Source of the DNA: a virus
Length of the DNA stretch: 64,000 nt
IMG/VR virus record: IMGVR_UViG_3300035210_000132
Coordinates: 28,596-92,595 of that record
Reading direction: 5' to 3' (one strand)
Shown here: positions 13,974-41,865 of the stretch, piece by piece
Numbering within the stretch: position 1 is the first letter of the stretch
Layout: every line of letters starts with the position of its first letter
Notes under the pieces: model-generated
What the model saw: the letters and a program-made list of their open reading frames with translations, nothing else
What the model was told of the DNA's origin: nothing
Database searches by the model: none
Position numbers and translations under genes: made by a program

Positions 13974-14234
13974 ATGATCTTTAAGCCGATGCCAAAGGAA
14001 GAGATCCTCAAGGCCTTGCGGGGCCATGAGGACATCATTGATAGGGCCGTTAAGGAGCATGAGGCCTTTTTCAAGCGCCTGTCGTGCCCTTCTTGTGGGG
14101 GGGAGGTGATGCCTGTTGTAAATCCCAAGAGGCTCTTCCGAGAGAGCTCAGTGCTTCCCAGCTACCTAGGCAAGTGCCGGTCCTGCGGCGTAGAGTTCGA
14201 GCCGTACACAGGCATCCAAGTCACGCTTCGCTAA
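13974..14234 (+). CDS. Small Cys4 zinc-ribbon protein (86 aa), encoded antisense inside the minus-strand structural operon, in the gap between the tail-fibre and baseplate-J-like genes.
   Basis: 'CPSCGG...(22 aa)...CRSCG'. This is the only plus-strand ORF in the 44-kb block and it occupies a true intergenic gap (13922..14230). Confidence 0.5.
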   Translation: MIFKPMPKEEILKALRGHEDIIDRAVKEHEAFFKRLSCPSCGGEVMPVVNPKRLFRESSVLPSYLGKCRSCGVEFEPYTGIQVTLR

Positions 14235-17200
14235 GTCCTCGTCAGGTAGATCTGCTCTCCAGAAGGCCTGACCAGCTTCTTGGAGGTATTGGGGCCGGCG
14301 ATGAAGTAAGCCTGCAGGTAGTTCCCCTTGAAGAGGGGAGTTCCTGAGCTTAGCCCGATCGCAGTCTCTGAGCGCATGCCTCTGATACGACGATCAGTGC
14401 CGTGGAACAAGGCGATCAGGAAAATGGGCAGATTGACCTTGAGTGCCCCTAGGTTCTTGATCTTGTCTTGCACGAGGTCCGAGCGAATCTCCGCAACATT
14501 CGGATCGATGTTATTAAGATACTGGATGATAGCAGAGGCCACTTCTGCTTCTGCTGATCCTCCCGAGTAGGAGGCGTCCAGCATGACGTATCCAGGCAGG
14601 AAGTGGCGCACCAGCATATTGGCGTTGGTGACTCGATCTAGGGGTGAGTCGAAGAACGACTGCACGTCGTCGACCAGAGGGGCATAGTTGTAAGTAACCT
14701 GGAGGTTCTGGCCAGCCAAGCTGAACTCGTTCTCTAGGTCTGCTGTGGATCCCACAGGCAAGACCGCGTTGGGCAAGATAATGTCTACCTGCTCCTTGTT
14801 CGAGAAAACGAAGTTCTCATCAGCAACTTCTAGGGTGTAACCACCAATCTTGCGATAACCGGAGAGCACAAACCCATCCGAGAAGCCGACATTCATGGCT
14901 GCGGAAGGGCCGTAACCGACGACAGGAAGATCGACATAGTACAGAGCCCCGTCACGATTGCTACTCATAGCCGTAGAAGAAATGCGAGTGACCCCGGAAC
15001 GTAGGATGCGATAGGGACACTTGTGGGCAAAGTTCCTCTGCCCATTTCCTGTGTCTACCACACCGGGAGCCTCTAACTCCATCTGCTTCTCGCTCGTATC
15101 CAGCAAGGGATGACTCTCGTCAGGTGACCAAGGAAAGCTCGTGACTTTCAGAGTCTTGCTGATGGAGTCATAGAGGCGAAAGCGTGCGAACTGATCCGAG
15201 ATCTCAGTGCCCCCGTCGGAGGTAGGAAGAGGCTCGGTAGAAGGGACCGCATGCAGTACCCAACGAACGAAGACCAGGTCCTCTGGGAAATCGGCCGAAC
15301 GTTCCAGCTCCACAAAATAGTCAGTAGCCAGGGTGAAGTGTGGGTCAGTGCCTACGGACAAGATACGATAGGTACCCAGATAGGTAGCATCGTTGGGTAC
15401 TAGGGCAGCCAACAGCGCCGGGCTCTGAGCTGCGTAGATCGTTATCCAGTCGGTTGCCTTGGCGCCAGAAAGCCCAGAGCCAAAGAGTTTCTTCGTCCCA
15501 GGAAGGACCAGGGCTCCTCGAGCACTAATACCAACATCCCCTACGGTGAATCGGATCCCGCCTCCGTAAGCACTGTCCACAGAAGGAGCTGCTACTTTGA
15601 TCCTCTTGAGGGGCCCGGTCTCCTTCGAGCTGACATAGAGGCGAGCCTTTACCAAATCAGCGCTATCGACGGCAACAGCCAGATAGTGAGCAGAGAACAG
15701 GACGTTGGCATTGAGGTCGGCCGCAACGTGATCTAGGTCTGGGTAGTAGCCACTCACGGTGTGGGTGATGGAAAAGGTATGTTCTACGTCGCTGATCCAA
15801 GTTACACCGTTATCCAAGGAGGTCTGAAAACGAACCCTCTTGCCCAGTACAAGACCTGTGTTTCCCGGACCCCACCCAGCATCGGTGCGCACGAAGGCGG
15901 AGGTATAGCTTGAAAAGTCGATCACGGGAGGAGGTACAGACCCAGACAAGACGGGCAAAACTTCCGTCGTGTGTGTCATGGTCCTGTCGAGTTGGATGCG
16001 CAGTAGCGGAGGGTTGGCTACCCAATCTTGCTGAGTCACCTGGATGATCGTGTAGACCCCCAAATCGGGACCACTGTCGATGTAGAAGAGCTGTCCTCCT
16101 GCCAAGGAGGTAAAGTTATCTGCCCCTCCGTAACCTGGGTACGAAGTACCATCGCTAGGCGGGATCAAGAGCTGCACGATGCTCGACCCGGTTTGGGTCA
16201 GGCATAGCCAGCTAGAGGCCATGTCTCCTCGAGCAGGCAAGTCAAGCAACGCTGGGTAGTACTCGAGGGTGTCCCCGACTCGGATGCCCTTCTTGGCGAA
16301 GGAGGATCCACTGGTCATGGCCACAAACCGATCCTGCTGATTACGCAGACCCAGATCACGGTTCCATAGAGCTGGATGCGTCTGAGCAAATGATTCAGGA
16401 ATAATCTGAGCTGCAGGTAGCTTGGGATCGATACGAAACTTCTTGGATCCGTCGGTAGCTAAAGCAAAGGTAGTGGGGTCTTCTTTGGAGTGGAACTCTA
16501 CGGACACAGGATCCAAGAAGTAGAGACGGAAGTCTCCCTTGGCCGAAGGCCCCACCGAGTAGCTGGTCCGGATGAGAGCATCAAAGAAGGTTTTCAACTC
16601 CCCATCACTGGAAAAAGCTATCCCCAAAGAAGAAAGACAGGTGCGGAGTTTGGTAATAAAGGTAGGGTAGAAACCGGCTCCGTTATCCCAGTCGGCAGCA
16701 TACTCCAGAAAACCAAAGAGCTCATCAGCAGTCCAGTCCGGTGCTACGGACACGTCGTTGATGAAGTTGATGGCGGTTCTGAGTGGGTCAACCTTGAGAG
16801 GAGGATCGACCTGTACTATCGCTACGGACCGGTGACCCTGGTCAGCCTTGCCCCAGAGCTCTAGCACACGAAGGTCGGTGATAAGGTAGTTCCCTTGATT
16901 GGGGCCATCGTAGATCGTCAAAGAGTTACCAACGGCAGCATCGGCTAGGTAACTGGTACGATGAGCTCCTGGAACCGCCGAAGAGAACTTGTTGTCGCGG
17001 TGAGCCACGAGAGCTAGAAGCTTGTCTCTTCTACCGTTCCATAAAAATGGAGGCACGTTGACTTCAGTGGTCTCGACTTGATTGGAGGCGTGGTGTGTGA
17101 TCTTGCGCACCACACCATCAGGCTCTTCCAGGCCAAGCGTATACCGGGCATCGGTCGTGTCGTCGATTGCCCCAGGAAGGACAGGGTCAGGAGTAAGGCC

Positions 17201-19210
17201 TCCATTGGCCCACTCGATCATGTCGGGGAAAACTACCAACTGAGTGTCGTAGGTGATGAGCTCCCTACCGGCTCCTTCCAAAGTACCAACAGGACGAACA
17301 TCCACCGCATCCCCGTAGGGAATGACGATGCCTGTGCCCTGTCCCGTAGAGTCCAGGATCTCCAAGCTCTTCACTCTGACCAGGGGACGGCTAAGGCCTG
17401 TAAGCCTCGTGTATATCTGGTAGCTCAGAAACGACCCCGTAGCAGTAGCGGGCCGGTCTACCGTCACGGTTTTAGAGGCCACCGATAGAATAGAGAACTC
17501 TCCAGCATCGACCCCCTCAAGGATCCTGATCGTATCCCCCTCCTTGACCCCAAAATCCTGGACGTCGGTGTTTATGAAAGTGAAGGTAGTCTCCCCAACT
17601 CCTGTCTTCAGGTCAGAGATAGCACCGGTATTAAAAGGCAGTTTCGGTATGTGAGGTTCGATCAAGTCAACACGTATGTTACGCACGACACGGGCTCTGA
17701 GCTTGACCGAGACTGCTGTTGCGGTGGCAAAGATAGAATCAAGACGAAGGTAGTGAGGAGCAGATGCGCTGACCTCTACTACCCGGTACGTTCCTGCGAA
17801 CCCCGTCCCTGTCTCGATCACCAAGGTGTCCCCATCCACGACTCCTGCAAGAACAAAGTCAGTGGTGGGGGAGTAGGCTCGATTTGAGCTTGCCTCTGGG
17901 ATGGTGAGATCTACCACCGCGATAATGGGGGCCTCATCGGCCACATTGTCCAGTGATCCTTGGATCTCGACATCTTCAGTAGGCCGGATGTAGATGTCGG
18001 TATGTCCCCCCAGATGGACTTTGTTGTCGGGGACGGTAATATTGGTGGCCATCCCTCCAGGAATGCCCGATATCGTCAAGTAGCCAGGTTTGAGCAGAGA
18101 GAAGGATCCTTGTTTCACAACTCCGGAAGCATAAAGAGACCGATCGAGGAGGAGAAGGTACCTTCCTGCCGATGCTGCTAGTACGGTGGTTACCTGGGCG
18201 CTTTGGACACCTTGATTATCCTGGAACCTCACCGTGTCCCCAGGTTGCACCAAGATAGAACCAGAAGGGCCGGGGTCTCGGTACACCACCGAAGCTACCC
18301 ATAACCAGTCACCGTAAATCACAGCGGTTCCAGATAGGTGAAGGAAGCCCTCACCTGTACCCGTCAGGACATCCCGGTTCATACCGCTTTCGCCAGCTCC
18401 TATGACTTGGAGGGCGCGTACACTACTAAACAGGTCCTGGGTCCTAACCGAGGACCCTCTCTTGGTTACCAGCGACTTTTCTGAAAGTGCCTGGTTCACT
18501 CGATCGAGGAATTCTTGATTGTTCTCTCGTGGCCGTCCTGTGCCCACAGGAGCCAGATTCGCTACCTGCACTATGCCGGGAACCTGGTCTATTCCAGAGA
18601 TAGCGTTCTTGTCGACGTTGTACTCGGACCCAGGAGACTCGGCCCTGACCACGATGTCCAGGTAGTAGAAACTTCCCTGACGGTTGAACAGCATCTGCTG
18701 TGCTGTGATCAAGTAATTCTGTACCGGGAAGTAAGCTAACCCGGTATTTGTGTAGAGCCGCTTATCTGTACTGACCCTAGAAAGGGTGGGCTGTGCATAG
18801 TACAGGCGCACGAGGCCAGTAGCGTAATCGCCCTCATCACGGGTCTCGAACCAGTTGGAAGCAAAAGCGTCGGCTTCTCCGTCGGATAAGAGAGATGCAT
18901 TCTTGGCCGACTGGTTGATTTTGACCAGCTCGATCTCTCGCTTGAAGGGCTCGAGCAAGAGCTGTAGAGGTTTGATCAGTACATCTTCGAGAGCTCCGCC
19001 ATCGTCGGTAGCCAGATTGGGGAACTCTTGGGTAACTCGATCGACGATGAACGTCGGGACATCAGTAGAGAAAGGGTCCTCGGCAAACCTCTGGAGAATA
19101 GGTGTGATGACCTGCGCTTGTGCTGGGCTCCCAGAAGATAGATCGAGGGTGGAGTTCCAGGCCAGCAGCCGGTTCTCTAGGAAACTTTTCAGGTCGTCAG
19201 AAAAGGCCAT
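14231..19210 (-). CDS. Baseplate-J-like (gp6/gpJ family) baseplate wedge protein with a very long C-terminal extension (1659 aa).
   Basis: The N-terminal ~300 aa shows the characteristic blocks 'ATGLVRLYYAQPT', 'SFYYLDIVVRAESPGSEYNV' and 'IDQVPGIVQVANLAPVGTGRPRENNQEFLDRV' (compare the gpJ 'I.GV..V.N...GG.DsEsDe.LR.R' motif). Confidence 0.55.
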   Translation of the reverse strand: MAFSDDLKSFLENRLLAWNSTLDLSSGSPAQAQVITPILQRFAEDPFSTDVPTFIVDRVTQEFPNLATDDGGALEDVLIKPLQLLLEPFKREIELVKINQSAKNASLLSDGEADAFASNWFETRDEGDYATGLVRLYYAQPTLSRVSTDKRLYTNTGLAYFPVQNYLITAQQMLFNRQGSFYYLDIVVRAESPGSEYNVDKNAISGIDQVPGIVQVANLAPVGTGRPRENNQEFLDRVNQALSEKSLVTKRGSSVRTQDLFSSVRALQVIGAGESGMNRDVLTGTGEGFLHLSGTAVIYGDWLWVASVVYRDPGPSGSILVQPGDTVRFQDNQGVQSAQVTTVLAASAGRYLLLLDRSLYASGVVKQGSFSLLKPGYLTISGIPGGMATNITVPDNKVHLGGHTDIYIRPTEDVEIQGSLDNVADEAPIIAVVDLTIPEASSNRAYSPTTDFVLAGVVDGDTLVIETGTGFAGTYRVVEVSASAPHYLRLDSIFATATAVSVKLRARVVRNIRVDLIEPHIPKLPFNTGAISDLKTGVGETTFTFINTDVQDFGVKEGDTIRILEGVDAGEFSILSVASKTVTVDRPATATGSFLSYQIYTRLTGLSRPLVRVKSLEILDSTGQGTGIVIPYGDAVDVRPVGTLEGAGRELITYDTQLVVFPDMIEWANGGLTPDPVLPGAIDDTTDARYTLGLEEPDGVVRKITHHASNQVETTEVNVPPFLWNGRRDKLLALVAHRDNKFSSAVPGAHRTSYLADAAVGNSLTIYDGPNQGNYLITDLRVLELWGKADQGHRSVAIVQVDPPLKVDPLRTAINFINDVSVAPDWTADELFGFLEYAADWDNGAGFYPTFITKLRTCLSSLGIAFSSDGELKTFFDALIRTSYSVGPSAKGDFRLYFLDPVSVEFHSKEDPTTFALATDGSKKFRIDPKLPAAQIIPESFAQTHPALWNRDLGLRNQQDRFVAMTSGSSFAKKGIRVGDTLEYYPALLDLPARGDMASSWLCLTQTGSSIVQLLIPPSDGTSYPGYGGADNFTSLAGGQLFYIDSGPDLGVYTIIQVTQQDWVANPPLLRIQLDRTMTHTTEVLPVLSGSVPPPVIDFSSYTSAFVRTDAGWGPGNTGLVLGKRVRFQTSLDNGVTWISDVEHTFSITHTVSGYYPDLDHVAADLNANVLFSAHYLAVAVDSADLVKARLYVSSKETGPLKRIKVAAPSVDSAYGGGIRFTVGDVGISARGALVLPGTKKLFGSGLSGAKATDWITIYAAQSPALLAALVPNDATYLGTYRILSVGTDPHFTLATDYFVELERSADFPEDLVFVRWVLHAVPSTEPLPTSDGGTEISDQFARFRLYDSISKTLKVTSFPWSPDESHPLLDTSEKQMELEAPGVVDTGNGQRNFAHKCPYRILRSGVTRISSTAMSSNRDGALYYVDLPVVGYGPSAAMNVGFSDGFVLSGYRKIGGYTLEVADENFVFSNKEQVDIILPNAVLPVGSTADLENEFSLAGQNLQVTYNYAPLVDDVQSFFDSPLDRVTNANMLVRHFLPGYVMLDASYSGGSAEAEVASAIIQYLNNIDPNVAEIRSDLVQDKIKNLGALKVNLPIFLIALFHGTDRRIRGMRSETAIGLSSGTPLFKGNYLQAYFIAGPNTSKKLVRPSGEQIYLTRT

Positions 19211-23956: not shown

Positions 23957-24904
23957 CTAGGACATCCTGATAGGCATGGGAGGGGCGGTGTTGATGCTAA
24001 ATAGGTCAGGAGAGGTGGAGAGAGCCTCGAGCAAGTCGAACTCATCCTCATTTGGTACAACTAGCTCTCTTTGGTAAGGAGTGCCTTCAAAGAAGATGCG
24101 GTACGTTGCCCCCTTGATGACCTCCTGAGCAGCGTAACCAAAGCTGTCCGTCGTAGCGATGATCCGGTCCACACCAGGAAGAGCGCTGTAGGTCATCCCG
24201 GAGCCCACGTCTACGCGGCTCACAGAAACAGGAACAAAGATGATTCTCTTGCCTATCAAAGGCTTTCCTGCTCCATCAGCCAGATAAGCAAACGCCTTTG
24301 CCTTGAAGCTAGAGACGATGACCGTCTGAGGAGCTCCCTGCTGGGGAGCAGAAAAGGGACTGGCTGCTCCTGTCTTCGTCGAATAGAACCTGGTCCGGTA
24401 CCAATGAAGAGGAGACCCGCCAAAGTCGCGAAAGCGGTAGAGGGAGGTAGTGGGGGTTAGCTTGATGGTGCCGCTCTTACCTGAGATGATCTGAGAAGGA
24501 AGGCCCAGTGTCACCTGGGCACCCCCTGTAACAAAGATGGTTGCCTGGGTACCACTTAGTGGACTGACCAGAGCTAGTTTCCCGTCCGAGGCAAAAGCCA
24601 GTCCAGGTATTTTGGTGTTGATTTGTTTGATGACCGTCTGCAGGTCGATGGGAGTAGGCCCCAGGAAGGGGACAGTGACTGCATCTGAGCCACTGAGAGA
24701 GATCAGTAGACTCTGACCACTCAAGTTCCAGGGACCCTCCACGGTACCGACCTGGGTTGCTGGGGATGGCGTATCGCTTGTAACAGCTATGTAGGGGGCA
24801 GGTGAGCCGGACTGATCTACAGATCGCCAGACCTGGATGACATCATAAAGCGCCACCACTCCCGTTAAGTCGTCTACGACAATATTGAGACTGATGGTTG
24901 CCAT
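23957..24904 (-). CDS. Hypothetical tail protein (315 aa), immediately downstream of the repeat protein.
   Basis: Coupled ORF; beta-rich. Confidence 0.5.
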   Translation of the reverse strand: MATISLNIVVDDLTGVVALYDVIQVWRSVDQSGSPAPYIAVTSDTPSPATQVGTVEGPWNLSGQSLLISLSGSDAVTVPFLGPTPIDLQTVIKQINTKIPGLAFASDGKLALVSPLSGTQATIFVTGGAQVTLGLPSQIISGKSGTIKLTPTTSLYRFRDFGGSPLHWYRTRFYSTKTGAASPFSAPQQGAPQTVIVSSFKAKAFAYLADGAGKPLIGKRIIFVPVSVSRVDVGSGMTYSALPGVDRIIATTDSFGYAAQEVIKGATYRIFFEGTPYQRELVVPNEDEFDLLEALSTSPDLFSINTAPPMPIRMS

Positions 24905-24906
24905 GC

Positions 24907-27900
24907 TTACCTCGGTTTCGGGTCAGGGACTTGTTGCCCAGAGAGCTCTGCGGAGGTGGTGGACCCCTCGGCTACCTTGGGTCCTGGACCTGCTCCTCCT
25001 TCCCCAAACACTACCCCAGATGCATAAGCCTCGGAAGTTCCAAGTACGATCGCAGTCGCCTCGATGAGGTTACGGACAAGGTCGACCGCTAGATTTTCAT
25101 CGAGAGGAAGGAGCTCGGCAATTAAGGCATAAAAGTTGGCAAGAGCCCGCAGTTCTTCTACAAGCTCGACCTGCTCACTCAGATTTACCCGAGCTCCTAA
25201 GGAAGCATTCAGCTCCTCACTGATGGTCAAGAGCTCGGCAACGGCCACAGGGTAGTTCGCCGAAGCCCCAATCGCCTCCAAGACTTGAACCGTCTCCACC
25301 TGCTGCTGGATAAAGTGCGCCAGCAGAGAGACAGATTCCGAGACGATCAGGGTCTCGGATGGCTTCTCCTTGAAGCCCGCACTCGCCGTCATTGTCTCAG
25401 TGATAGAGAGGGTCTCTGAAGGCCTCTGAAAGTAGGTCGCAGCGGCTCGTAGCGACTCTGCCAGAGATACGGTCTCTACCGGCGTCGGCTTGAATCGGGC
25501 CAGGGAGGCCAGAGCTTCGGTGAGTGATATGCCTTCTGAGAGTTGGGCCAAGAGCTTCTTGGCAGCGACCAGAGATTCGGAAACGGGAACACTCTCGGAG
25601 AGGCTAGCGTGCCGACTGGCATGCACGGCCACGGCCTCAAGAAGACCGACCAGCTCTGCTTGGTGCTCATAGTACTTGGCCAGGGTCGAGACTGACTCAG
25701 TGACCACCAAAGTTTGGGTGAGGGCCGTGCGCATCTTCTGCGAGACGGCGAGGAGCTCGGTCAAGCTAGTCGTCTCTGCTAGAGCGACCACGTACTTGTT
25801 GTAGGAAGACAGCGCCTCCGCTAGAAAGACGTTATCCAGAAGCGTCTGCCGGAAGTGCATGACTGCCCTGACGGCTTCAGCTAGGGCAGGAGATTCGGTG
25901 AGATTGAGTCGGGTGGCTACCTTGGCCGTGACCGCTTCGAGCAGCCCCACTGCCTCATTGATGTGTACCGTCTCGGTGGCAGTGACTTCTGAGCCGACCA
26001 GGACCGTGATGGCTTCGATGACCGAGAGGATCTCGGTGATAACGGCATGAGCACGGACCTGGCTGACCAAGCTCTCAAGGATAGTTACATACTCTTGGAG
26101 AAGCGGTTTGGCCCGGAAGGTCGTTCCCAAGCTCTCGTTCAGGGTCATGAGTTGCGAGAAGGTCTGCTTGGCGGCCCAATGCGAGGCCAAGGCCTCACTG
26201 ACAAGGAGGGTCTCCGAGAGGATGAAACCAGCCTTGGATTTGCTAGCCAGGGACTCGGCAACCGATACCGTCTCTGTGAGTTGGGGCTTGGCACCTCGAA
26301 TCGAGTTCAAGAGCTCAGCCAAAGAGACACTTTCCGAGAGGCTCTGCTGCGTGACTCGCTTGCTAGCGAGTAGCTCACTGAGAGGCACCGTCTCCGAGAC
26401 CGGAGCGGCGATGTACCTGCCCACCCGTAGATCTTCGAGGAAGGTGACGATCTCAGAGACATGGGGGAAGGCCGAAGCCTTGGTGATGAGGGCCTCTACC
26501 AGGTTCGGACTCTCTGACAGCGCCTGGAAGGACTTGAGTTTGGAGCTGATGAGCTCGCTAAACGCTACGTTCTCGGAGAGGGCCTGCACCACCCTCTTGG
26601 CGAGGTTCAGGGTCTCTGAGAGCGCCAGGTTCTCACTGAAAGCAATGGTCGAGGCTTTCCTGGCCAGAAGTTGCTCGGTCAATCCTACCGTCTCGGTTAG
26701 GATCGTTGCCAAGATTTTCTTGGAGCTCAGAGACTCAGACAAGCTGAGCGACTCAGCGAGACCAATGAAGGCCTTCCACTTGGACGCCAGAGCTTCAGAG
26801 AGCGTTGCCGTCTCAGAGAGACTAACCTTGGCCACGCGAGCTGCGATAAGCGTCTCGGCTAGAGTGACGCTCTCTGCTAGAACCTGAATCACCACTTTCC
26901 TGGCGTTCAGGGTCTCCGTGAGAGTCACTGTCTCCGAAATTTGAGCGTAGCTACGACGGCTAGCTGCAAGGCTCTCAGAGAGCGAGTCAGTCTCAGTGAG
27001 GCTGGTGATGGCCCTCATCAAGGTCGCCAGGGACTCCGAGACCGTGATGGCAGTCTCAGAAACCGTGATGAACGAGTGTCTCGTAGCAGTCAGGGCTTCC
27101 GTAAGAACAGAACTCTCACTCAAGATCTGCTTCGTCGACCAAAGACTGCTCAAGCCCTCCGAGAAAGGCGTCAGGGTCTCGAAGAGAGCTACCACCGCAT
27201 TGGCGCTCAGGCGCGCGATGGAATTGTAGCCAGCTATGAGAGGCGTGCCTACGGGGTTGCGAAGGACGGCTCTGAAACCGTAGCTGTTGAGAAAGACCTT
27301 GAGGTAGAGATAATCCTGGAGGGCTTGGACGATGTGTTGGGAGACAGATAGACCTTCGCTGACCGACAAGCTCTCACTCAGAAGAGCGGTGTAAGCTGTC
27401 CCCGTGAACAGAGGGGCATCAAAGAAACCAAGGCCGGGAAAGCCCGTGACATCCGCATAGTCATACGCATCTGACCAGCTTCTGGCAACGATATCAGCCT
27501 TCGAGGGGAAGGGCAGTACAGTAGGGCCCAGATAGGTGTCAGCGTAGCTGAGCACGTCTAGGACGGCGGGGGCTCCGGCGCTGTCCAAAGCAAACAAGTA
27601 GAGCTGGGCGCCCTCATTCTGATTCGGGGTCCACGTGACTCCGTACGTTCCTGCGGCCACCACCACCTGAACAGCAACGGTGCATTGAACGAGAGCCGCG
27701 TCTTCGGTCACGGAGTCAACTCGACTCCACCCTGCGCTAGGCGTCATCGTGTGCAGCCCGTTGCCGATCCCGCCGTCACCCCAGCACAGCGCGACCAGCA
27801 CCGCAGGTCCTTCGACGGTAACACTCACAGCGGTTAGGGCAGCTGGGTAGAGACGCTCAACCCAGGTGGCAGCGGCAAGTCGTAGAGCTGAAGTGACCTC

Positions 27901-28899
27901 TACGGCAACCAGAGTTAGCTCGTCGTGGCTGCTTTTGGCAACTGCGACAACATGGTTCGCTCCGCCACTTGCGCCGATCTTGGCGTAGATGGCAGTCCCT
28001 GAAGAAGTCCAGTTCGTATACGTGTGGGAGGCGCCCACCTGAGCATAGAGGTTGCCCTTGTTGTCTGTGGGAACGACTTGCTCAGCTTGGATACCTCGAC
28101 CAACGGCAACGAGTATGGTGCTGCCAGAGGTTTGCGTGGTGCCCGGAGCCGTAGACACCGAAGTAGCAAGATCGTCAAGATATGAAAAACCGAGACGGTG
28201 CACTCCAACTTGCGGCCCGGTAGGGGCCGCCTTGAAACTGACGATCGCCGCGGACCAGGCTGTCTCGGCCAGGTTGGCCGTGTTGGTCCAGGTCCATGCG
28301 GCTGAGTACGTGCCGATGGGCGCGCCGTCACGGAAGCAGATCTCGGCGCCGGCGTCCGTCGTCGTGTTCTGCGCGGCGGCGGCGCTGGTCCACGAGGCGG
28401 GCGGGTCGGTGAAGCCCGTCGAGACGCGACCCCCGTTGGTGGTGCTGGTGCCGAGGGCAGCGAGCAGGATGTCGCCGACCTGTGTCGTTGTGATCGAGTT
28501 CGTGTCGCCGGTCGTGACCGACGTCTCGCCGTGATTCGTGTTGCTGACGTCGACGGCGGTGCAGGGTGGCAGCTCGAGGAGGACCCAGGTGCCCCACGTC
28601 GACACCGCGCCGTAGGACTGCGTGAGCGTGTGCGTGCCCGCGCTCGCCGACTGGCGCCACCAGACGCCGATCTTGGTCGCGTCCGCCCCGGTGTTGCCGG
28701 TGGAGTTGGGTGTGAGGACGGCCGCCCAGACATCGCCCGAAGAATCGGTCGGCGTGGGCCAGGCAGCGTCACCGACAAGGCCACTCGTCGAGACGATCAC
28801 GACCACGAGGGTGTTCCCGGCCGTGACGCCGGAGAGCGAAGCGGTGGGGAGCGACTGGAGGCTCTGGAAGCTGCCGTTGGCCTTCTGGATCCAACTCAC
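24907..28899 (-). CDS. 1330-aa protein made of an N-terminal ~480-aa globular beta-rich domain (its first ~200 aa are encoded by very high-GC DNA), about 34 tandem 20-aa repeats (consensus LSETxxLSExLxxKxxxxxx), and a short Gly-rich C-terminus. Candidate tail tape-measure protein (gene order sheath-tube-chaperones-TMP) or, alternatively, an alpha-helical fibre.
   Basis: Repeats read directly, for example 'LSETATLSEALASKWKAFIG / LAESLSLSESLSSKKILATI / LTETVGLTEQLLARKASTIA ...'. It lies downstream of the 650-aa gene, the two tube-like paralogs and three small ORFs. Confidence 0.6.
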   Translation of the reverse strand: MSWIQKANGSFQSLQSLPTASLSGVTAGNTLVVVIVSTSGLVGDAAWPTPTDSSGDVWAAVLTPNSTGNTGADATKIGVWWRQSASAGTHTLTQSYGAVSTWGTWVLLELPPCTAVDVSNTNHGETSVTTGDTNSITTTQVGDILLAALGTSTTNGGRVSTGFTDPPASWTSAAAAQNTTTDAGAEICFRDGAPIGTYSAAWTWTNTANLAETAWSAAIVSFKAAPTGPQVGVHRLGFSYLDDLATSVSTAPGTTQTSGSTILVAVGRGIQAEQVVPTDNKGNLYAQVGASHTYTNWTSSGTAIYAKIGASGGANHVVAVAKSSHDELTLVAVEVTSALRLAAATWVERLYPAALTAVSVTVEGPAVLVALCWGDGGIGNGLHTMTPSAGWSRVDSVTEDAALVQCTVAVQVVVAAGTYGVTWTPNQNEGAQLYLFALDSAGAPAVLDVLSYADTYLGPTVLPFPSKADIVARSWSDAYDYADVTGFPGLGFFDAPLFTGTAYTALLSESLSVSEGLSVSQHIVQALQDYLYLKVFLNSYGFRAVLRNPVGTPLIAGYNSIARLSANAVVALFETLTPFSEGLSSLWSTKQILSESSVLTEALTATRHSFITVSETAITVSESLATLMRAITSLTETDSLSESLAASRRSYAQISETVTLTETLNARKVVIQVLAESVTLAETLIAARVAKVSLSETATLSEALASKWKAFIGLAESLSLSESLSSKKILATILTETVGLTEQLLARKASTIAFSENLALSETLNLAKRVVQALSENVAFSELISSKLKSFQALSESPNLVEALITKASAFPHVSEIVTFLEDLRVGRYIAAPVSETVPLSELLASKRVTQQSLSESVSLAELLNSIRGAKPQLTETVSVAESLASKSKAGFILSETLLVSEALASHWAAKQTFSQLMTLNESLGTTFRAKPLLQEYVTILESLVSQVRAHAVITEILSVIEAITVLVGSEVTATETVHINEAVGLLEAVTAKVATRLNLTESPALAEAVRAVMHFRQTLLDNVFLAEALSSYNKYVVALAETTSLTELLAVSQKMRTALTQTLVVTESVSTLAKYYEHQAELVGLLEAVAVHASRHASLSESVPVSESLVAAKKLLAQLSEGISLTEALASLARFKPTPVETVSLAESLRAAATYFQRPSETLSITETMTASAGFKEKPSETLIVSESVSLLAHFIQQQVETVQVLEAIGASANYPVAVAELLTISEELNASLGARVNLSEQVELVEELRALANFYALIAELLPLDENLAVDLVRNLIEATAIVLGTSEAYASGVVFGEGGAGPGPKVAEGSTTSAELSGQQVPDPKPR
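25150..27430 (-). repeat. About 2.2 kb of in-frame tandem 60-bp repeats (~34 copies, degenerate) encoding the 20-aa repeat; recurring core GTCTC(N)GAGA on the plus strand.
   Basis: 60-bp spacing of 'accgtctctgtgag', 'cactttccgagag', 'caccgtctccgagac' (26266/26328/26386) and many more. Confidence 0.7.
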
Positions 28900-28932
28900 A
28901 AAAGTACCCCGCCGCCGGCGAGAGCCATAAAA

Positions 28933-29451
28933 CTACCCGTTCGGGTAGATCGTGTTGGGAGTGGTGCCGTAGATGTCGGGGGACCCGGCCTTGTACATGT
29001 TCAAGTAGTGCACTTCGTACCAAGGTGTCGTGACACGGAAGTTCCCTGATCCGTCAGAGGTCGTAGAGTCCTGAAGGCTGTCGTCGGCAGTCCGGAAGAG
29101 CTTGACGATGCAGGTACCCATAGGGCTGCCGTTGCCGTCACGCGACTTGCCCGTGATGACGTAACGGATACGGGTACCAGAAGTGTACTCCGGGGGCTCG
29201 AAGCCTCCAGCAGAGTAGGCATCCCCAAAAGGCAGACCAAGACCTGTCTCACCAGCACCAGAATCTCCTATAAGACCCCCGCGCCCAGGCCAGTAGAGGT
29301 TCCGGAACTCCCCTTCGATCTCTTTTGACCAGGGGTTGAGCTCGAGAAATCCATGGTTGCCCCACGCGGTGCGAATACGGGATTCTGCCCCCGTCAGGTT
29401 GTTGGCCTGGACGATGTTCACGTACAAGGCCGCTCCGACGAACTGACTCAC
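28933..29451 (-). CDS. Hypothetical protein (172 aa). Its position just upstream of the repeat protein is compatible with a tail assembly chaperone.
   Basis: ATGA-type 4-nt overlap with the upstream ORF. Confidence 0.45.
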   Translation of the reverse strand: MSQFVGAALYVNIVQANNLTGAESRIRTAWGNHGFLELNPWSKEIEGEFRNLYWPGRGGLIGDSGAGETGLGLPFGDAYSAGGFEPPEYTSGTRIRYVITGKSRDGNGSPMGTCIVKLFRTADDSLQDSTTSDGSGNFRVTTPWYEVHYLNMYKAGSPDIYGTTPNTIYPNG

Positions 29452-29753
29452 TTGGGCACCGGGGGTTTGCGATCGTCTCGATCATCGATGGCCAGATCGT
29501 GGTAGCCCATATCCCCTCTGGCCTTCCACCCCAGACCCTCTGGAGTCACCAGCTCGACGTCTCGGTTGGGCATGGCGATCTTCTGACCATCTGGCCTCAT
29601 CTGTCCGCGGATGGCGTCTTCGGCATGCTTCAGCATGGCCAGCGCGTAGGCCTTGTTGCCGATGTACCCTTCCACCGAGAGCGCTCCGTTGTCGTGGTGC
29701 TTGATGGTGATGGAAGCCACTACGGTGTCTCTCGTGAGATGGGGATCAGCCAC
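29448..29753 (-). CDS. Hypothetical protein (101 aa, GTG start).
   Basis: Its start overlaps the stop of the 56-aa ORF (GTGGCTGA). Confidence 0.45.
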   Translation of the reverse strand: MADPHLTRDTVVASITIKHHDNGALSVEGYIGNKAYALAMLKHAEDAIRGQMRPDGQKIAMPNRDVELVTPEGLGWKARGDMGYHDLAIDDRDDRKPPVPK

Positions 29754-29916
29754 TGACCGCCGCCTTCTCGAAGATCATGAGCCAGAGGATGTTCCCATCG
29801 TCTCCGGTGTAAGGCGTGGCCAACGTAGTGATGAGGCGCCAGCCATCACTGGCTCTGGAGGTGATGGTGCTTTCGAGTTGCGGCCAGCCCACTTTTTCCA
29901 CTGCGTACTCGTACAT
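29746..29916 (-). CDS. Small protein of 56 aa missed by the ORF track (MYEYAVEKVGWPQLESTITSRASDGWRLITTLATPYTGDDGNILWLMIFEKAAVSG).
   Basis: ATG at 29914-29916 preceded by GGAGGCAGAG, an SD with 5-nt spacing. The SD overlaps the TAG of the upstream gene, and the ORF's TGA overlaps the GTG of the next gene. It fills an otherwise unexplained 170-nt gap. Confidence 0.45.
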   Translation of the reverse strand: MYEYAVEKVGWPQLESTITSRASDGWRLITTLATPYTGDDGNILWLMIFEKAAVSG

Positions 29917-29925
29917 CTCTGCCTC

Positions 29926-30375
29926 CTACTCGTCTGCGACCACGTAGAGATCCGATGCCACGCCCGTAGAGACATTCCAGACGACTATACTTGACGCGAC
30001 GTTGAGGGTATTCCCCTGCGGAGGGATCACAAGCCCTCTTGGGAAGGTCCAGACTACTCCAACGCCAACGATGTTGGTGCTGTTCCATCTCCGCATGTAG
30101 ACGAGCGGCGCTGTGGGACTGGTGTTCCATGCCAACGCCACCTGCAAGACCGACTGTGGATCGTTCGGGTCATCTGGGGAAAACACCGTCTGGGACGAAG
30201 GGGTGACTCCGATCGCCTGAGGCCGAGCCAGAGCAACTGACTGCACCGTTGCAGCGGCCTGAATGTAAGAGACCTCGAGAAGCTTCGGCCGAACGCCCGT
30301 AGGTGCACGAATCTCTGCTGAGGCCTGCCCAGAGGTGGTGTTGGTCGTCCGGACGCTAACGCTGGAGGTTGCCAT
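29926..30375 (-). CDS. Small beta-rich structural protein (149 aa), tandem paralog of 30388..30816. Candidate tail tube protein given that it follows the 650-aa gene.
   Basis: Aligns end to end with its neighbour (M..S..LRT.N.T...A.E.R.G.R.K.LEVS.IQ ... IGVTP ... TW.TSPTAP ... RRWNS ... VGVG.VWTFPRG). SD GAGAGG. Confidence 0.45.
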   Translation of the reverse strand: MATSSVSVRTTNTTSGQASAEIRAPTGVRPKLLEVSYIQAAATVQSVALARPQAIGVTPSSQTVFSPDDPNDPQSVLQVALAWNTSPTAPLVYMRRWNSTNIVGVGVVWTFPRGLVIPPQGNTLNVASSIVVWNVSTGVASDLYVVADE

Positions 30376-30387: not shown

Positions 30388-30816
30388 TTACTCGTCGCAA
30401 GCGAAGTTCACATCGAGCGCGACCGATGCTGTGATGTTGAAGATGACCACACTCGAGCTCACCGCCATGACGAAGCCTCTGGGGAAAGTCCAGACCATGC
30501 CGACACCGACGGTGGCTGCGCTGTTCCAGCGTCTCGGGTAAGGGTTCGGCGCGGTAGGACTGGTACCCCAAGTGAGCGCCGCTGTCAAAGTTGACGTGGC
30601 CTCGGCTGGGTCATCCATGACCGGGACTGAAGTCGTACCTGGAGTCACCCCGATCACTGCCGGCTTCCCAAAACCGAAGGAAGACGCTGTACCGGTGACC
30701 TGGATGAGCGAGACCTCGAGCACCTTGACGCGCAGACCGGCGCCCGTGCGCAGCTCACAGGCCGCGTTATTGATGGTGACGTTGCTGGTCCGCAGACCAA
30801 TTGAGCTGATAGGCAC
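30388..30816 (-). CDS. Small beta-rich structural protein (142 aa, GTG start), tandem paralog of 29926..30375. Candidate tail tube protein.
   Basis: Paralogy read directly. SD AGGAG 8 nt upstream of the GTG. Confidence 0.45.
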   Translation of the reverse strand: MPISSIGLRTSNVTINNAACELRTGAGLRVKVLEVSLIQVTGTASSFGFGKPAVIGVTPGTTSVPVMDDPAEATSTLTAALTWGTSPTAPNPYPRRWNSAATVGVGMVWTFPRGFVMAVSSSVVIFNITASVALDVNFACDE

Positions 30817-30847: not shown

Positions 30848-32800
30848 CTACCCCTCAACTGTAGTTGGGTAGCTGTTATCGGTTCTACCGACATGGGTCG
30901 AGTCCTGCCACATCTCCCAGTACAACAACTCCGTGTCGTTGTAAACGATGGTGCTGAAGATGCCCCCGACACCGGTAGTGACTTTGTAGAGCAATTCGCC
31001 ATCGGAGGCGCGATGAAGGCAGGCAGTCATGCCGGAACCATCGCCGGCGAAGTTCACCGCGTTGCCTCCCGTGGCCCAGGTCTGGGAGTGGTAGGTGCAG
31101 TAGATCGCGTACCCAGCGCAGCAGGTGGTCTTCACCGAGACTCTGTGGTACCGAGCCACTTGGGGGTCGAGAAGGCCTTGAGCCAGCGACGCGGAGTTCG
31201 GGCTGTCGTAGTAGACTCCAACAGCCGGCGTTCTCCTTCTGATGGTCGGGTACTGGTAGCCGTTCCCCACGTTCAGAGGCCCGATGACCCTCCAACCTTC
31301 ACCAGGAGATCCCGGGTCAGTCGACAAGATCTCGGCTAGGGCCACAAAGGTGAGGCCGTTGGTGGTGTCGCACTGAGGCATGGAGAAGTACGCGAGATCA
31401 GCAGCCACGAAACGGTAGTAGGTCTCGGGGATGAAGAAGGTGTTTTGAATCCCCTTCGACTCGACGGCGTCATTACCAGAAGAGGCGTTGCAGAAGTAGA
31501 TCGTGTGGTTGTGCGTGTCAGCTCCCAGAGTGGCCTTGTCGCTCGTGTAGTTCAGGTACAGAACCGCATCCAAGCCGTAGATCGACTGACCCGCCTGCCC
31601 TCTTCTGGCGTTGAACGTGATGCTGTTCGACCCTCGAGCCAGAGAAACTCCTGCTCCTAGAGCTGCTGCACTGTCTACTCTGATGATGCAGTCGAAGCCT
31701 CCCGCACATAGGCTGGCATAACCAGAGTAGGTTCTCTCGCTCTGCGCCCCACAGGAGACGATGAGATCGTTGGCCGTGGCGTACGCCGAGTAGCTGTGGA
31801 CCTTCACGCCACTCTGAAGCAGGGTGATGGTTCCTGGCTCGACAACGTCGAAAGAGAAGACCGAACGGTGCTTGTCTGTGGCTGTGTTGCCGTCCAGAAG
31901 ATCAGGTGCGTTGGCGATGCACATCTGAAGTGAGTTCAAGATGCGCGTGCTGTTCGTGTGGTTGTACTCGTAGATGACGACAAGCACGACCGAGATCCAG
32001 CTCGGTCGGATGCCGTTGGTGCTGGTCGTCCTGAACTTGATCGCATGAGTGGCCGACGTACTCATATCGTCGCGCACCCAGTGCTGGACGCAGTACCGTC
32101 CCGTAGACCCGCTCAAGGTCAGGTTGTGGGTACCATCGTTGACCTCAGACTCGGAGTCGAGCTGCATCCCGAGCTGGGAGTTGGTGGTACTGCCCGGCGT
32201 CTCGTTGTAAGTGATCTCGAAGTATTTCTGCCGGTAGACGACGCTGTTCTCGGGCAAGAAGGTGCTCAGGTTGGGCACCTGGCTGGTTCCGAGCTCCGCA
32301 AGAGAGCTCGACAAAGAACCCGTGTTGGCCGAGTCCAGGGGGATTTTGGCCATCTTGATACGGGTCGTCTGCGCGCTATCGTTGTACTGGTAGGTGATGA
32401 TCAGCTTCGCCGTGGTGTTGATGCGAGAGAAGCCGGTGATGGCCACCCCTACCTGGCACGTCTGTGACGTCCCAGAACCGAAGTTGGCATTGAAGTAAGC
32501 GGTGAAGTCGCGTACCAGAACGAACTCGCGCTCGTTGGTCGTGGACCGGCATGTTGGAGTACGGGTGATGTCAGAGAAGCCAGCCGCTGCCAGATTCACT
32601 CCGATGGTCCAGGAGGTCAGGGTGACAGCAGTGTTCGAGTTGTCGAGGAAGGTGACTTCGACTACCACTGAGACGAAGTTCCGGCTGGCGTTCTCTGGGA
32701 TGTAGACGGTGAGGGCAGACCAGTCGTACCGAACCGTAGACGCCCTAGCGGTCGTGTCGGTCGGGAATGCGTACTCCAAGGTTTTGGTTCTTAGAGCCAC
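30848..32800 (-). CDS. Major structural protein (650 aa), Asn/Ser/Thr/Tyr-rich beta protein with a very strong SD. Candidate tail sheath (layout: large protein followed by two tube-size paralogs) or major capsid protein.
   Basis: The SD TGGAGGGAG immediately upstream of a GTG start implies high expression. A 63-nt intergenic region precedes it. No sheath signature motif was confirmed. Confidence 0.4.
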   Translation of the reverse strand: MALRTKTLEYAFPTDTTARASTVRYDWSALTVYIPENASRNFVSVVVEVTFLDNSNTAVTLTSWTIGVNLAAAGFSDITRTPTCRSTTNEREFVLVRDFTAYFNANFGSGTSQTCQVGVAITGFSRINTTAKLIITYQYNDSAQTTRIKMAKIPLDSANTGSLSSSLAELGTSQVPNLSTFLPENSVVYRQKYFEITYNETPGSTTNSQLGMQLDSESEVNDGTHNLTLSGSTGRYCVQHWVRDDMSTSATHAIKFRTTSTNGIRPSWISVVLVVIYEYNHTNSTRILNSLQMCIANAPDLLDGNTATDKHRSVFSFDVVEPGTITLLQSGVKVHSYSAYATANDLIVSCGAQSERTYSGYASLCAGGFDCIIRVDSAAALGAGVSLARGSNSITFNARRGQAGQSIYGLDAVLYLNYTSDKATLGADTHNHTIYFCNASSGNDAVESKGIQNTFFIPETYYRFVAADLAYFSMPQCDTTNGLTFVALAEILSTDPGSPGEGWRVIGPLNVGNGYQYPTIRRRTPAVGVYYDSPNSASLAQGLLDPQVARYHRVSVKTTCCAGYAIYCTYHSQTWATGGNAVNFAGDGSGMTACLHRASDGELLYKVTTGVGGIFSTIVYNDTELLYWEMWQDSTHVGRTDNSYPTTVEG

Positions 32801-34637: not shown

Positions 34638-35441
34638 CTACAGGAACTTAGCTGCATCCTGTACGTAGGTCGTGATCTTGCCACGGATGCGAGAGACCTT
34701 GGAAGGATGAATACCTGTCTGTTTGGAGATCTGCCCAGGCTGGAGACGAGGCTTGCCGTTTAGGCCCCACGTATATTCGTAGACCGTTCTCTCTTCTGGC
34801 GTCAAACGGCTGTCGTACTGCAAGATATGAATCGCCTCGAGCTCCTTAGAGTTCAGGAGCTCTGCTGGATCCTGATCCTCGGCGAACTGGGAGGCGATCA
34901 TGTCCTTGCGTGAGAGCTCCTTGGTCAGCTGAGCCACTTGCTTGGGAGACCACTTCAAGTGATCAGCAATGGCTTTCGTGTCTGGCTCAAACCCCAGAGT
35001 GTTCGACAGGTGCTCCTTGGCTTGCTTGAACTCGCGAATCTTGGCGATCTGGCCTTCGGGGATCTTGCCTAGATTCTGGTAGGTTTTGATGAACCTAGAG
35101 CTCTTCTTCAGATTCTGCTGCACCCAGGTGTTGAGCGCCGCCTTGGTCGGATTGAAGGTAGTCATCGCGGTGACGAACTGCTTCCGCATCTCGGCGTTGA
35201 TCGCCGACTTGGGGATCTCGACACCTCGATACTTGTTCGACTCCTTGTGAAGGAGAGGCTTGAAGGACTCGTAGAGGGGCTTTAGGTGCTCTGGTTTGCG
35301 TCCGTTGTTGTTCCAGTGATGCCAGAGGTCCACCTCTTTGCGCTGTGTGGCCTTGAACTGCTCTTTGTCTCTAGGAAGAGCCGCTTCCTTGGCCATCTCG
35401 ATGAACTCATCGAGAAGCGTTAGGTGGAAAATAGGGATCAC
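34638..35441 (-). CDS. RNA polymerase sigma factor, sigma-70 family (267 aa), with regions 2 and 4 recognisable. Located inside the structural (late) operon.
   Basis: Region 2.2-like 'TTFNPTKAALNTWVQQNLKKSSRFIKTY' (compare 'KFDPxxGxxFSTYAxWWIRQAI'). Region 4 HTH 'LTPEERTVYEYTWGLNGKPRLQPGQISKQTGIHPSKVSRIRGKI'. GTG start at 35441; the alternative ATG is at 35396. Confidence 0.65.
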   Translation of the reverse strand: MIPIFHLTLLDEFIEMAKEAALPRDKEQFKATQRKEVDLWHHWNNNGRKPEHLKPLYESFKPLLHKESNKYRGVEIPKSAINAEMRKQFVTAMTTFNPTKAALNTWVQQNLKKSSRFIKTYQNLGKIPEGQIAKIREFKQAKEHLSNTLGFEPDTKAIADHLKWSPKQVAQLTKELSRKDMIASQFAEDQDPAELLNSKELEAIHILQYDSRLTPEERTVYEYTWGLNGKPRLQPGQISKQTGIHPSKVSRIRGKITTYVQDAAKFL

Positions 35442-40642: not shown

Positions 40643-41865
40643 CAGACGGGGGCCTTCGGAAGGTACTTCGACACCTGCAGAATCTGCTTGCCTGTGGCCA
40701 CTGAAGCGATCGTGTTCACGTTGACTGCTCCAAAAGACACTGAGCCTACGGTGGCTGCGATGTCGTCTTTGATGGGGATGGCCTTGGCGACTTCGAGGAG
40801 TTGTGACCCTCCGGGTAGTCCCTTGACCCCATCCCCGAGCCTTCCAATCGTAGAGTTGACGGTATCGAAGGGCAGCTTCGCTATCTGCTTGTCGATCTCC
40901 GAAGAGATCTTCTTCTCTGCGATAGCGATACCGGCCTTGGCTGCCTGTACCGCTATGGTCTTGACCAGGGAGACCAGCAAGGACTCCTTAGGGCCACTCA
41001 AGGCCGGAGTAGTCGAAGCAGGATAAGGAGAGTTGACAAAGTCACGAGAGATGAACTCATCCGAGTTGTCGCTGAGATAGGTACTGGTTACCTGCGCTCT
41101 TTTGGTGTCTGTCAAAGAGGCACCGTAGGCAGTTTGGGCGGCCTCCAAGTAAACCCCCTTATCAAACTCAGTCTTAGCCTGGGACCCAGTGTCGACTGTA
41201 GCTTTTGGGGCACTAGGCAACCACTTGGCCTTCGGGTTTCCTATGTTGGAGATGTTCTGGTAATTCGTCAGAAAGAGCTCGAACTGGAAGTGGACTAGAT
41301 TCCTCTCCTGGGACGATTCCTGGGCAGCTGCCTTGGTCATGTACCCTTCGACCACGATCTCGTCCCAGGACAAGTAGACTCGGCTGTTGGAGCGCACACA
41401 AGAAGTCCCACGAAGGTACCTCTCGTAGTTCTCCCACCACTCGGCTCTCCAGTTGAAGTCATCGGTGTTGAGGAGGACTCCCGTGATGCTCAGACTTCTA
41501 GGCTGCTCCCCGAAGAAGAAGATAAAGGGATCTCCGAAAGTCGTGATGATCTGCTGTTTCTCTACCCGCTGCTCGACTATCTGCTGGATCAGGAAGTTGG
41601 AGTTGTAGGCCCCTGTCCCTGAATTATCTTCCGCTGCCGCATCGAACAGGGGCATGGGGGTGCCATCGGCCTTCCTGACCTGGAGCATGGCATAGGTATC
41701 CTCTTTGATCTGGATGCCTCGCATGGGCCGTCGAACCATATGAGGAGAGAGCATCCCGTAGCCAGGAGTGGTTGGGTTCCCGATGACCCCTTGCTTCTGC
41801 TCATCGGCAACAGCGTTGAAGCGCTTGCCGAAAGCATCGGGCTCGATCACGACGAAGGTAGACAT
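40642..41865 (-). CDS. Structural protein (407 aa).
   Basis: Coupled ORF with a conserved-looking core 'FGDPFIFFFGEQPRSLSITGVLLNTDDFNWRAEWWENYERYL'. Function not recognised. Confidence 0.55.
   Translation of the reverse strand: MSTFVVIEPDAFGKRFNAVADEQKQGVIGNPTTPGYGMLSPHMVRRPMRGIQIKEDTYAMLQVRKADGTPMPLFDAAAEDNSGTGAYNSNFLIQQIVEQRVEKQQIITTFGDPFIFFFGEQPRSLSITGVLLNTDDFNWRAEWWENYERYLRGTSCVRSNSRVYLSWDEIVVEGYMTKAAAQESSQERNLVHFQFELFLTNYQNISNIGNPKAKWLPSAPKATVDTGSQAKTEFDKGVYLEAAQTAYGASLTDTKRAQVTSTYLSDNSDEFISRDFVNSPYPASTTPALSGPKESLLVSLVKTIAVQAAKAGIAIAEKKISSEIDKQIAKLPFDTVNSTIGRLGDGVKGLPGGSQLLEVAKAIPIKDDIAATVGSVSFGAVNVNTIASVATGKQILQVSKYLPKAPV

Follow-up and report, generated by a model that had tools for sequence, protein, structure and literature searches.

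Probable in-frame fusion of a module from a high-GC phage to the gene of a likely fibre or minor-tail-type protein in a phage-like genome of about 56% GC

Background

Tailed phages are mosaic, and the shuffling of tail-fibre domains is the classic case of module exchange in genes for tail fibres and other virion-surface proteins. The gene described here lies at 24907–28899 on the minus strand of a 64,000-nucleotide stretch of viral DNA, which was analysed as a whole and is referred to as the window. It shares with such exchanges a discrete module with a separate history, joints at a domain boundary, and a location in an array of virion-protein genes. Usually it is the C-terminal receptor-binding tip that varies, whereas here it is an N-terminal module, which appears to have been added before a resident paralogous copy rather than to have replaced one. 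Also unusual is the size of the gap between donor type and recipient, about 70–73% against 56% GC, which shows no erosion.

By fold, the model of this module resembles over its full length actinophage "minor tail proteins" (phrog_2106) of Mycobacterium and Gordonia phages in BFVD (Foldseek E 1e-6 to 1e-5, TM-scores 0.52–0.70 over about 225 columns), although the identity is only 11–16%. Tape measure proteins are similar to the 1330-aa protein encoded here in being long with an internally periodic region, and in that the gene is in a contractile-tail-type array upstream of a Baseplate_J-like gene. The repeats differ, however, in having an even-lag periodicity instead of a heptad pattern.

Among family members, P0004 (970 aa, metagenomic contig L005), P0100, P0099, P0109, and P0126 have the same module at residue 1, as the window protein does. 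They also share with it a second copy of the module or a long repeat array, the repeats being of roughly 20 residues and rich in Ser/Thr-Glu motifs, although in sequence these repeats bear no relation to the ones in the window protein. The whole P0004 gene is uniformly high in GC, unlike the gene in the window.

Results and Discussion

Organization of the gene

The 1330-aa virion-type protein, taken from the open reading frame list and its translation, starts at a GTG codon at 28899 on the minus strand. Its order of parts is module copy 1, module copy 2, a linker, 36 repeats of 20 aa, and a Gly/Pro-rich tail. Copy 1 occupies codons 1–225 (28225–28899, minus strand), as delimited by GC3, the change point, homology, and the AlphaFold2 (AF2) model, and its N-terminal MSWIQKANG aligns with residue 1 of its homologues. 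A short junction, aa 226–232 (PTGPQVG; 28204–28224, minus strand), was placed by codon-by-codon listing and DNA alignment. Copy 2 covers aa 233–434 (27598–28203, minus strand), based on a family HMM match over aa 254–434, and is followed by a non-repetitive linker seen in the translation, aa 435–573 (27181–27597, minus strand), which has no family match.

About 36 tandem 20-residue repeats follow at aa 574–1293 (25021–27180, minus strand), with the consensus LSETVSLSESLASKxKAxxx and a register slip of 6 residues near aa 960–990. They were identified from an in-register listing and from identity autocorrelation, which peaks at lags 20 and 40 and also at even lags. AF2 models of four non-overlapping repeat blocks are all-helical at low confidence (pLDDT 55) and are not interpretable; the hydrophobicity spectrum, with harmonics of 20 only, does not settle between alpha and beta.

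Composition of the island

The earlier note on this DNA had described a sharp GC island in the N-terminal part of the repeat protein. This is borne out by the GC and GC3 profiles, the total GC being 0.69 in the island and 0.557 in the 64-kb window. The extent given, 27900–28899, was too long: the island is real but spans about 675 nt (28225–28899) rather than 1000 nt, with 27900–28200 at background (0.545–0.595). In 200-nt windows GC is 0.68–0.71 across 28200–28800 and 0.52–0.60 on either side, and 28001–29000 (GC 0.653) is the top 1-kb bin of the window. Both flanks are of native composition, in one co-directional gene array.

Codons 1–225 have GC1 of 0.54, GC2 of 0.63, and GC3 of 0.907, while the remainder of the gene has 0.61, 0.47, and 0.66, respectively. 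Synonymous sites account for about 60% of the position-summed GC excess; the other 40% or so, at GC2, comes from a Thr/Ala/Ser/Gly-rich composition and not from codon choice. The sliding-window profile proposed as a check on the island deviates significantly here: GC3 is 0.907 against 0.643 for the window (binomial P = 7e-20), ranking 1/1997 among 225-codon windows, where the best non-island value is 0.827. In 60-codon windows the island has GC3 of 0.85–0.97 and all other genes 0.64 ± 0.09, with a maximum of 0.867. The maximum likelihood change point is at codon 225 (28225; support codons 210–230, 2*deltalnL = 64), where GC3 steps from 0.907 to 0.62.

The comparison of codon usage with other genes that was also suggested gives the same picture. 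The codon log-likelihood ratio of a 73% GC model to a window model is +0.24 per codon in the island, −0.39 in the remainder of the gene, and below zero for each of the 51 other genes (mean −0.40, maximum −0.11), such that only the island fits the 73% GC model.

The module family and its nearest relatives

A homology search with the N-terminal segment alone, as had been proposed, finds a large phage family. Copy 1 matches P0001 at 100% coverage (phmmer 2.4e-40), with 97 hits in all, and a profile search extends the family to 1654 cluster representatives (50% identity clusters). The island encodes a complete all-beta module of about 228 aa, modelled by AF2 with 14 strands (pLDDT 92.6). For the most part, homologues either are stand-alone proteins of 230–260 aa or, as longer virion-associated phage proteins, have the module at their extreme N terminus (residue 1); the match begins within the first 20 or so residues in most of the top 150 representatives, and the ends of the homologues align with the end of the island. 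The signature residues of the family are GVTAGNxL, D52, G55, AGTH (G88, H90), E109, D117, TDP(P), and G169. All are present in copy 1, including the conserved His90/Glu109/Asp117, except at the G169 position, which is Ser.

Copy 1 has no significant PHROG match, a PDB sequence search returns chance hits only, and no solved structure closely matches its fold. Within BFVD there are full-length fold matches to proteins of uncultured Caudovirales and to actinophage minor tail proteins, with TM-scores up to 0.83.

The closest relative is P0004, which is 61% identical over residues 1–229 only and unrelated thereafter (BLASTP of copy 1 against P0004 residues 1–236, 1e-73). The DNA is 67% identical from the start codon, which is likewise GTG in P0004, to the FK codons, with no alignment beyond that span. 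It is in the aa 226–232 junction that GC3 falls and that both DNA and protein homology to P0004 stop. The P0004 contig is 73% GC, with GC3 of 0.91–0.97 in each gene. Indeed, the three closest relatives (61, 48, and 46% identity) are all on contigs of 69–73% GC with GC3 of 0.89–0.95, while remoter relatives are on contigs of 53–67% GC. P0002, a family member on another phage contig, L001, has the opposite anomaly, with GC3 of 0.47 against 0.69 in its neighbours, so the module travels between genomes of different GC.

The second copy of the module

Copy 2 opens with a GTG codon (aa 233) and has a native GC3 of 0.62. Its kinship to the family is detected only by local hmmsearch (i-E 5.7e-9, HMM positions 22–211) and by phmmer against the retrieved members (P0172, 6e-5; P0017, 1e-4), an hhalign comparison with the family profile not being significant. 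Among PHROGs, copy 2 weakly matches phrog_2106 (minor tail protein; E = 0.0044). Where the family has the conserved His, Glu, and Asp, copy 2 has N, A, and R. Copy 2 is a divergent resident paralogue of the module.

Origin of the island

The coincidence of the GC3 boundary with the module boundary and the end of homology, the 69–73% GC contigs of the relatives, and the codon fit provide good support for the earlier suggestion that a domain was acquired or swapped from a higher-GC donor. Probably, a gene of a phage-like genome of about 56% GC received, by in-frame fusion, a module of a high-GC phage, and its product is most likely a fibre or minor-tail-type protein. The module of about 228 residues would have arrived by recombination with a phage of a lineage of about 70% GC, the 5' joint lying on the start codon or a little upstream of it and the 3' joint in the short linker past the last strand of the module (aa 226–232). 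The incoming unit would have been joined in frame to a resident gene. That gene may once have begun at the present GTG codon 233, and a very divergent module copy of its own would already have preceded the array of 20-residue repeats. That donor-type synonymous codon usage is kept indicates that the insert is recent in compositional terms, not having been ameliorated. At only 61% identity, P0004 identifies neither the donor nor a date for the event.

No relatives of the whole 1330-aa protein were found in IMG/VR or the JGI metagenomes, nor were any of the recipient gene or contig found in viral, metagenome, and phage collections. Against cultured phages there is no match by megablast for 24000–30000, nor by tblastn for the island and the neighbouring 1259-aa protein. 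No sister genome without the island was found either.

It is improbable that there was no transfer and that the GC excess comes from a Thr/Ala/Ser/Gly/Pro-rich beta domain, or from local codon selection for high expression or 5' mRNA properties. The raised GC2 (0.63 against 0.47) would fit this, as would the gene at 30848–32800, where GC3 reaches 0.83 with no sign of transfer, which indicates that some GC3 heterogeneity is native to this genome. However, the biggest contributor to the excess is GC3 (+0.25), and the adjacent paralogous domain is similar in amino acid composition (A15 V13 T10 G10) and yet retains the native GC3. The codon log-likelihood ratio, with usage in the island like that of a 73% GC genome, and the location of the intragenic step on a homology boundary disfavour this explanation.

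An assembly chimera, in which some 700 nt from a GC-richer genome of the same sample were joined in by the assembler, is just as improbable. Cultured phages give no match to the window, which apparently derives from an uncultured source, and a second copy of the contig was not found, both of which would be compatible with a chimera. It would, however, take two junctions within 700 nt, both preserving the frame, one of them right on a start codon and the second inside an inter-domain linker, between flanks that are both native and belong to a single co-directional gene array.

The presence of two copies of the same family in tandem might instead suggest that the resident module was recently duplicated within the gene and that one copy then underwent GC-biased drift or gene conversion. 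This is very unlikely. The copies have no detectable BLASTP similarity to each other (E > 1), and copy 1 is therefore not a recent internal duplication; a protein encoded on an unrelated contig shares 61% identity with it, and copy 1 has the family signature residues that are absent from copy 2.

The long Arg/Pro-rich open reading frames that had been noted in other frames all exist, although not all have that composition. The largest, 27915–28784 (minus strand, 289 aa), is Arg/Pro-rich (R19% P17%), two others, 28328–28660(−) and 28531–29049(+), are Arg-rich, and the two at 28052–28534(+) and 28622–28930(+) are Val/Ala/Pro-rich. Stop density within the island is lower in 4/5 alternative frames, and in the two sense frames it is about five-fold lower, at 3 per kb against about 15. 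These reading frames are a by-product of the high GC3, and are not genes. The length of the alternative frames notwithstanding, it is hardly credible that a real overlapping or antisense gene, or the target of a diversity-generating retroelement, constrains the composition of the island, since the longest frame is of low complexity, the GC-by-position patterns are those of the annotated frame shifted, the strong protein homology is in the annotated frame, and there is no second island copy, template repeat, or meaningful flanking repeat in the 64 kb.

When the island is compared by BLAST with the whole window, the matches are due to chance and none exceeds 25 nt, and no direct or inverted repeats flank it. 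A retroelement target and a transposon-like origin were both rejected on the lack of flanking repeats and of a second island copy.

Function of the protein and its N-terminal module

The protein had been described as positioned like a tape measure. That description is not supported, as the 1330-aa protein has no match in Pfam, PHROGs, or NCBIfam, to tape measure families or to any other, and its first 435 or so residues are two beta-sandwich modules. By composition, a better tape measure candidate is the Gly/Ala/Met-rich protein of 1184 aa encoded at 42267–45821. A Baseplate_J-like gene is 5.7 kb downstream of the 1330-aa gene, and the adjacent genes have no recognizable family. The 1330-aa protein is most likely a fibre or minor-tail-type surface protein.

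Relatives of the module are found in fibre or minor-tail contexts and in head-proximal ones. The family member in a Variovorax prophage adjoins a Gp80 fibre protein, on the context of which in GP4 nothing useful was found in the literature, and the downstream neighbours of the family members on L001 and L005 are unrelated to each other. It had been suggested that the island is a host-range or receptor module. The weak resemblance of the fold to fibre tips, lectins, and TNF-like jelly rolls is in keeping with this, although the strictly N-terminal position is unusual for a receptor-binding tip; on the model, a receptor-binding role is plausible. With His90/Glu109/Asp117, copy 1 would supply an intact ligand-binding or catalytic head, and a new head would change what the virion binds.

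A more speculative reading, possible but doubtful, is one of "module rejuvenation", in which an intact copy of this very widespread module, its His/Glu/Asp site preserved, was captured across a GC gap of about 15 points and set before a decayed resident paralogue. The family, with its shafts of Ser/Thr-Glu repeats of about 20 residues, might then define a class of phage surface fibres or adhesins (or enzymes) not described before, in which the N-terminal head is an exchangeable specificity unit.

Conclusions

The island is a clear example, though an ordinary one, of how a phage gains a ready-made domain from a distant relative among phages, and the exchange of modules in phage structural genes is already well known as a general phenomenon. 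The intragenic mosaicism is clean, such that the recombination joints can be placed within about 20 codons, and the type of donor, at about 70% GC, can be inferred although the recipient has no close relative. The island also reveals a large family of phage proteins with no entry in Pfam or NCBIfam, no significant PHROG match, and no solved structure. The family has a conserved polar signature, His/Glu/Asp, and the architecture of module plus 20-residue repeats recurs in it. Should the module decide the binding target of the virion, recent changes of host range could be recognized from such islands straight from sequence.

A GC-rich segment at the start of the 1330-aa gene

The gene at 24907..28899, on the minus strand with a GTG start, encodes 1330 aa, and the GC content of its beginning stands well apart from that of its surroundings. 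In 200-nt windows GC is 0.68–0.71 from 28200 to 28800, against 0.52–0.60 on either flank, and 28001-29000 is the richest of the 64 1-kb bins (0.653). The second-highest bin is 1-1000 (0.637), where ORF 45-929 has GC1 of 0.75 and no family match; the lowest, 39001-40000 and 43001-44000 (0.49–0.50), lie inside genes encoding 1259 aa and 1184 aa.

In codons 1-225, the island, GC1, GC2 and GC3 are 0.54, 0.63 and 0.907, compared with 0.61, 0.47 and 0.66 in the remainder of the gene, and the excess is therefore mostly synonymous, with a lesser share from a composition rich in Thr, Ala, Ser and Gly. GC3 in 60-codon windows is 0.64 ± 0.09 across the 52 candidate genes; windows outside the island reach 0.867 at most, and those within it have values of 0.85–0.97. 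Indeed, 204 of the 225 island codons are GC-ending (binomial P = 7e-20), and the island ranks first by GC3 among 1997 sliding 225-codon windows. The unrelated runner-up (0.827) is within 30848-32800 (minus strand), a 650-aa gene that ranks second in the window by GC3 (overall value 0.76, at most 0.83 in 225-codon windows). This gene shows no sign of transfer despite its high GC3 and may be a structural gene with high expression; its product has a 30%-identical relative on IMG/VR contig L004.

Bernoulli change-point analysis places the GC3 step at codon 225, window position 28225 (support interval codons 210-230; 2*deltalnL = 64). The GC and GC3 profiles across the window thus bear out the sharp island that the earlier note had described in the N-terminus of this repeat protein, but not its full extent of 27900-28899: some 675 nt (28225-28899) are GC-rich, while 27900-28200 is background.

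Codon usage and the boundary of the island

The closest relative of the island, P0004 (970 aa), is encoded on the 7.4-kb contig L005, which has 73% GC and GC3 of 0.91–0.97 in every gene. The three nearest relatives (61%, 48% and 46% identity) are on contigs of 69–73% GC and the more distant ones (29–40% identity) on contigs of 53–67% GC. Synonymous codons were compared by a log-likelihood ratio between a model of L005, trained with the homologous domain left out, and a model of the window. The ratio is +0.24 per codon for the island and -0.39 for the rest of its gene, is negative for all of the other 51 genes (mean -0.40, maximum -0.11), and is +0.36 to +0.47 for the L005 genes. No other part of the window shares this high-GC codon usage. 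That composition or selection produced the GC excess without transfer is improbable, given this ratio and the native GC3 (0.62) of the adjoining paralogous module, copy 2 (27598-28203, minus strand, aa 233-434).

P0004 is 61% identical to residues 1-229 and unrelated beyond. In DNA, the two genes align at 67% identity between the GTG start, which both use, and the Phe-Lys codons at the module's end, and nothing upstream or downstream of this span aligns. Stand-alone homologues stop where the homology to P0004 stops, which matches the GC3 change point, and the compositional step falls where both the module and the homology end. An assembly chimera would need two in-frame junctions within 700 nt, one at the start codon and the other in a linker, and is likewise improbable.

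The family to which the module belongs

Residues 1-232 have few direct homologues, while a profile of these residues retrieves 97 proteins from a word-indexed database and, when searched exhaustively, 1654 cluster representatives. Most members are 230–260 aa long and consist of the module alone; where the protein is longer, the match mostly starts no more than ~20 residues from the N-terminus. Pfam and NCBIfam have no match to the module, and PHROGs no significant one. AlphaFold2, run on an alignment of 67 sequences, models it confidently as all-beta, with 14 strands (pLDDT 92.6, pTM 0.91), and for this model Foldseek finds nothing in the PDB at E <= 1e-3. Searched against predicted viral structures, the model has full-length matches (TM 0.6–0.83) to uncultured Caudovirales proteins, and "minor tail proteins" from Mycobacterium and Gordonia phages match as well. 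The family signature comprises GVTAGNxL, D52, G55, AGTH (G88, H90), E109, D117, TDPP and G169.

A stand-alone member, P0002 (6517-7209 of another phage contig, L001), has GC3 of 0.47 where its 14 neighbours average 0.69. This anomaly is opposite to that of the island, which suggests that the module often travels between genomes differing in composition.

The resident copy and the repeat array

Copy 2 is very divergent, but its aa 254-434 match the family HMM (i-E 5.7e-9), collinear with HMM positions 22-211, and it is matched by two family members using phmmer. Extrapolation of the alignment has copy 2 beginning at about aa 233, a GTG codon, which is consistent with a former gene start there. 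Pairwise comparison shows no similarity between copies 1 and 2; copy 1 therefore does not stem from a recent duplication, and internal duplication of the resident module is very unlikely to be its source. Copy 1 retains His90, Glu109 and Asp117 of the family, where copy 2 has Asn, Ala and Arg, respectively. These are the polar residues that the family conserves most strongly, and copy 2, having lost them, may have degenerated to a purely structural role.

A linker follows, then approximately 36 repeats of exactly 20 residues (consensus LSETVSLSESLASKxKAxxx). In the array, residue identity correlates at even lags, the hydrophobicity spectrum has harmonics of 20 only, and AF2 predicts helices at low confidence (pLDDT 55). 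Several further members of the family (among them P0004, P0099, P0100, P0109 and P0126) likewise combine an N-terminal module with long arrays of ~20-residue repeats, and some repeat-bearing members also carry a second module copy. The overall architecture of the 1330-aa protein is therefore typical of the family.

Long ORFs in other frames are present because the density of off-frame stops falls in the island; the drop affects all but one of the five alternative frames and is about five-fold in both sense frames. The spurious ORFs noted earlier do exist; only the longest (27915-28784) is Arg/Pro-rich as claimed, two more being Arg-rich and two, 28052-28534 and 28622-28930 on the plus strand, Val/Ala/Pro-rich. 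An overlapping gene or a DGR target is the least credible explanation of the island, with no evidence of a real product from these ORFs, no template copy of the island in the 64-kb window, and no repeats flanking it.

Genomic context of the 1330-aa gene

Phage-like but highly divergent, the window matches no cultured phage in either DNA or protein. There are two Baseplate_J-like genes (phrog_6) on opposite strands, 14231-19210 (minus) and 61604-63811 (plus), the latter with a weak CBM_5_12 match just under the Pfam cut-off; they could be two baseplate modules or include a diverged paralogue. The right half of the window has just two recognisable enzymes, an ATP-dependent DNA ligase (46466-47974, plus strand, PHROG E = 1e-17) and a papain-family cysteine protease (58316-59110, plus strand, Pfam E = 1.8e-13). 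Just upstream of the 1330-aa gene is a tandem duplication on the minus strand, 30388-30816 and 29926-30375, encoding paralogues of 142 aa and 149 aa (47% identity, E = 1e-44).

The comparison with a tape measure made in the earlier note is not supported, as the 1330-aa product has no tape-measure family match and its ~435 N-terminal residues are beta-sandwich modules. The 1184-aa product of 42267-45821 (minus strand), which is Gly/Ala/Met-rich with hydrophobic Gly-rich stretches, has no family match but appears from its sequence to be the better candidate, resembling a tape measure or ejection protein more than the 1330-aa protein does. Downstream of it are 40642-41865 and 36863-40642. The gene at 34638-35441 (minus strand), which separates this putative tape-measure/hub block from the structural block downstream, encodes a protein that resembles sigma-70 region 3 and has a helix-turn-helix; it may be a late sigma factor of the phage.

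Elsewhere, family members follow a capsid gene, lie between portal and capsid genes or, in a Variovorax prophage, adjoin a podophage fibre protein of the Gp80 type, and copy 2 weakly matches phrog_2106, a minor tail protein. These contexts and this match lead us, with moderate confidence, to regard the 1330-aa protein as fibre-like or a minor virion-surface protein.

Probable gain of the module

In-frame gain of a complete module by recombination with a phage from a lineage of ~70% GC is the best-supported explanation of the island, because of its composition, the coincidence of the boundaries, and the contigs on which its nearest relatives are found. The higher-GC donor proposed from the sequence is supported by the codon-usage comparison together with the same boundaries and high-GC contigs. 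The incoming unit would have run from the start codon to the inter-domain linker, taking in the whole module, and been joined in frame ahead of the resident paralogous module. From these data we infer the direction, mechanism and timing of the transfer, "recent" meaning only that the island has not ameliorated.

Module exchange in phage virion genes is an already known kind of event, of which this is a sharp new instance, in a module family that is very large yet unannotated. The new copy would bring an intact binding or catalytic site, lost from the resident copy, and this putative site may alter what the virion binds.
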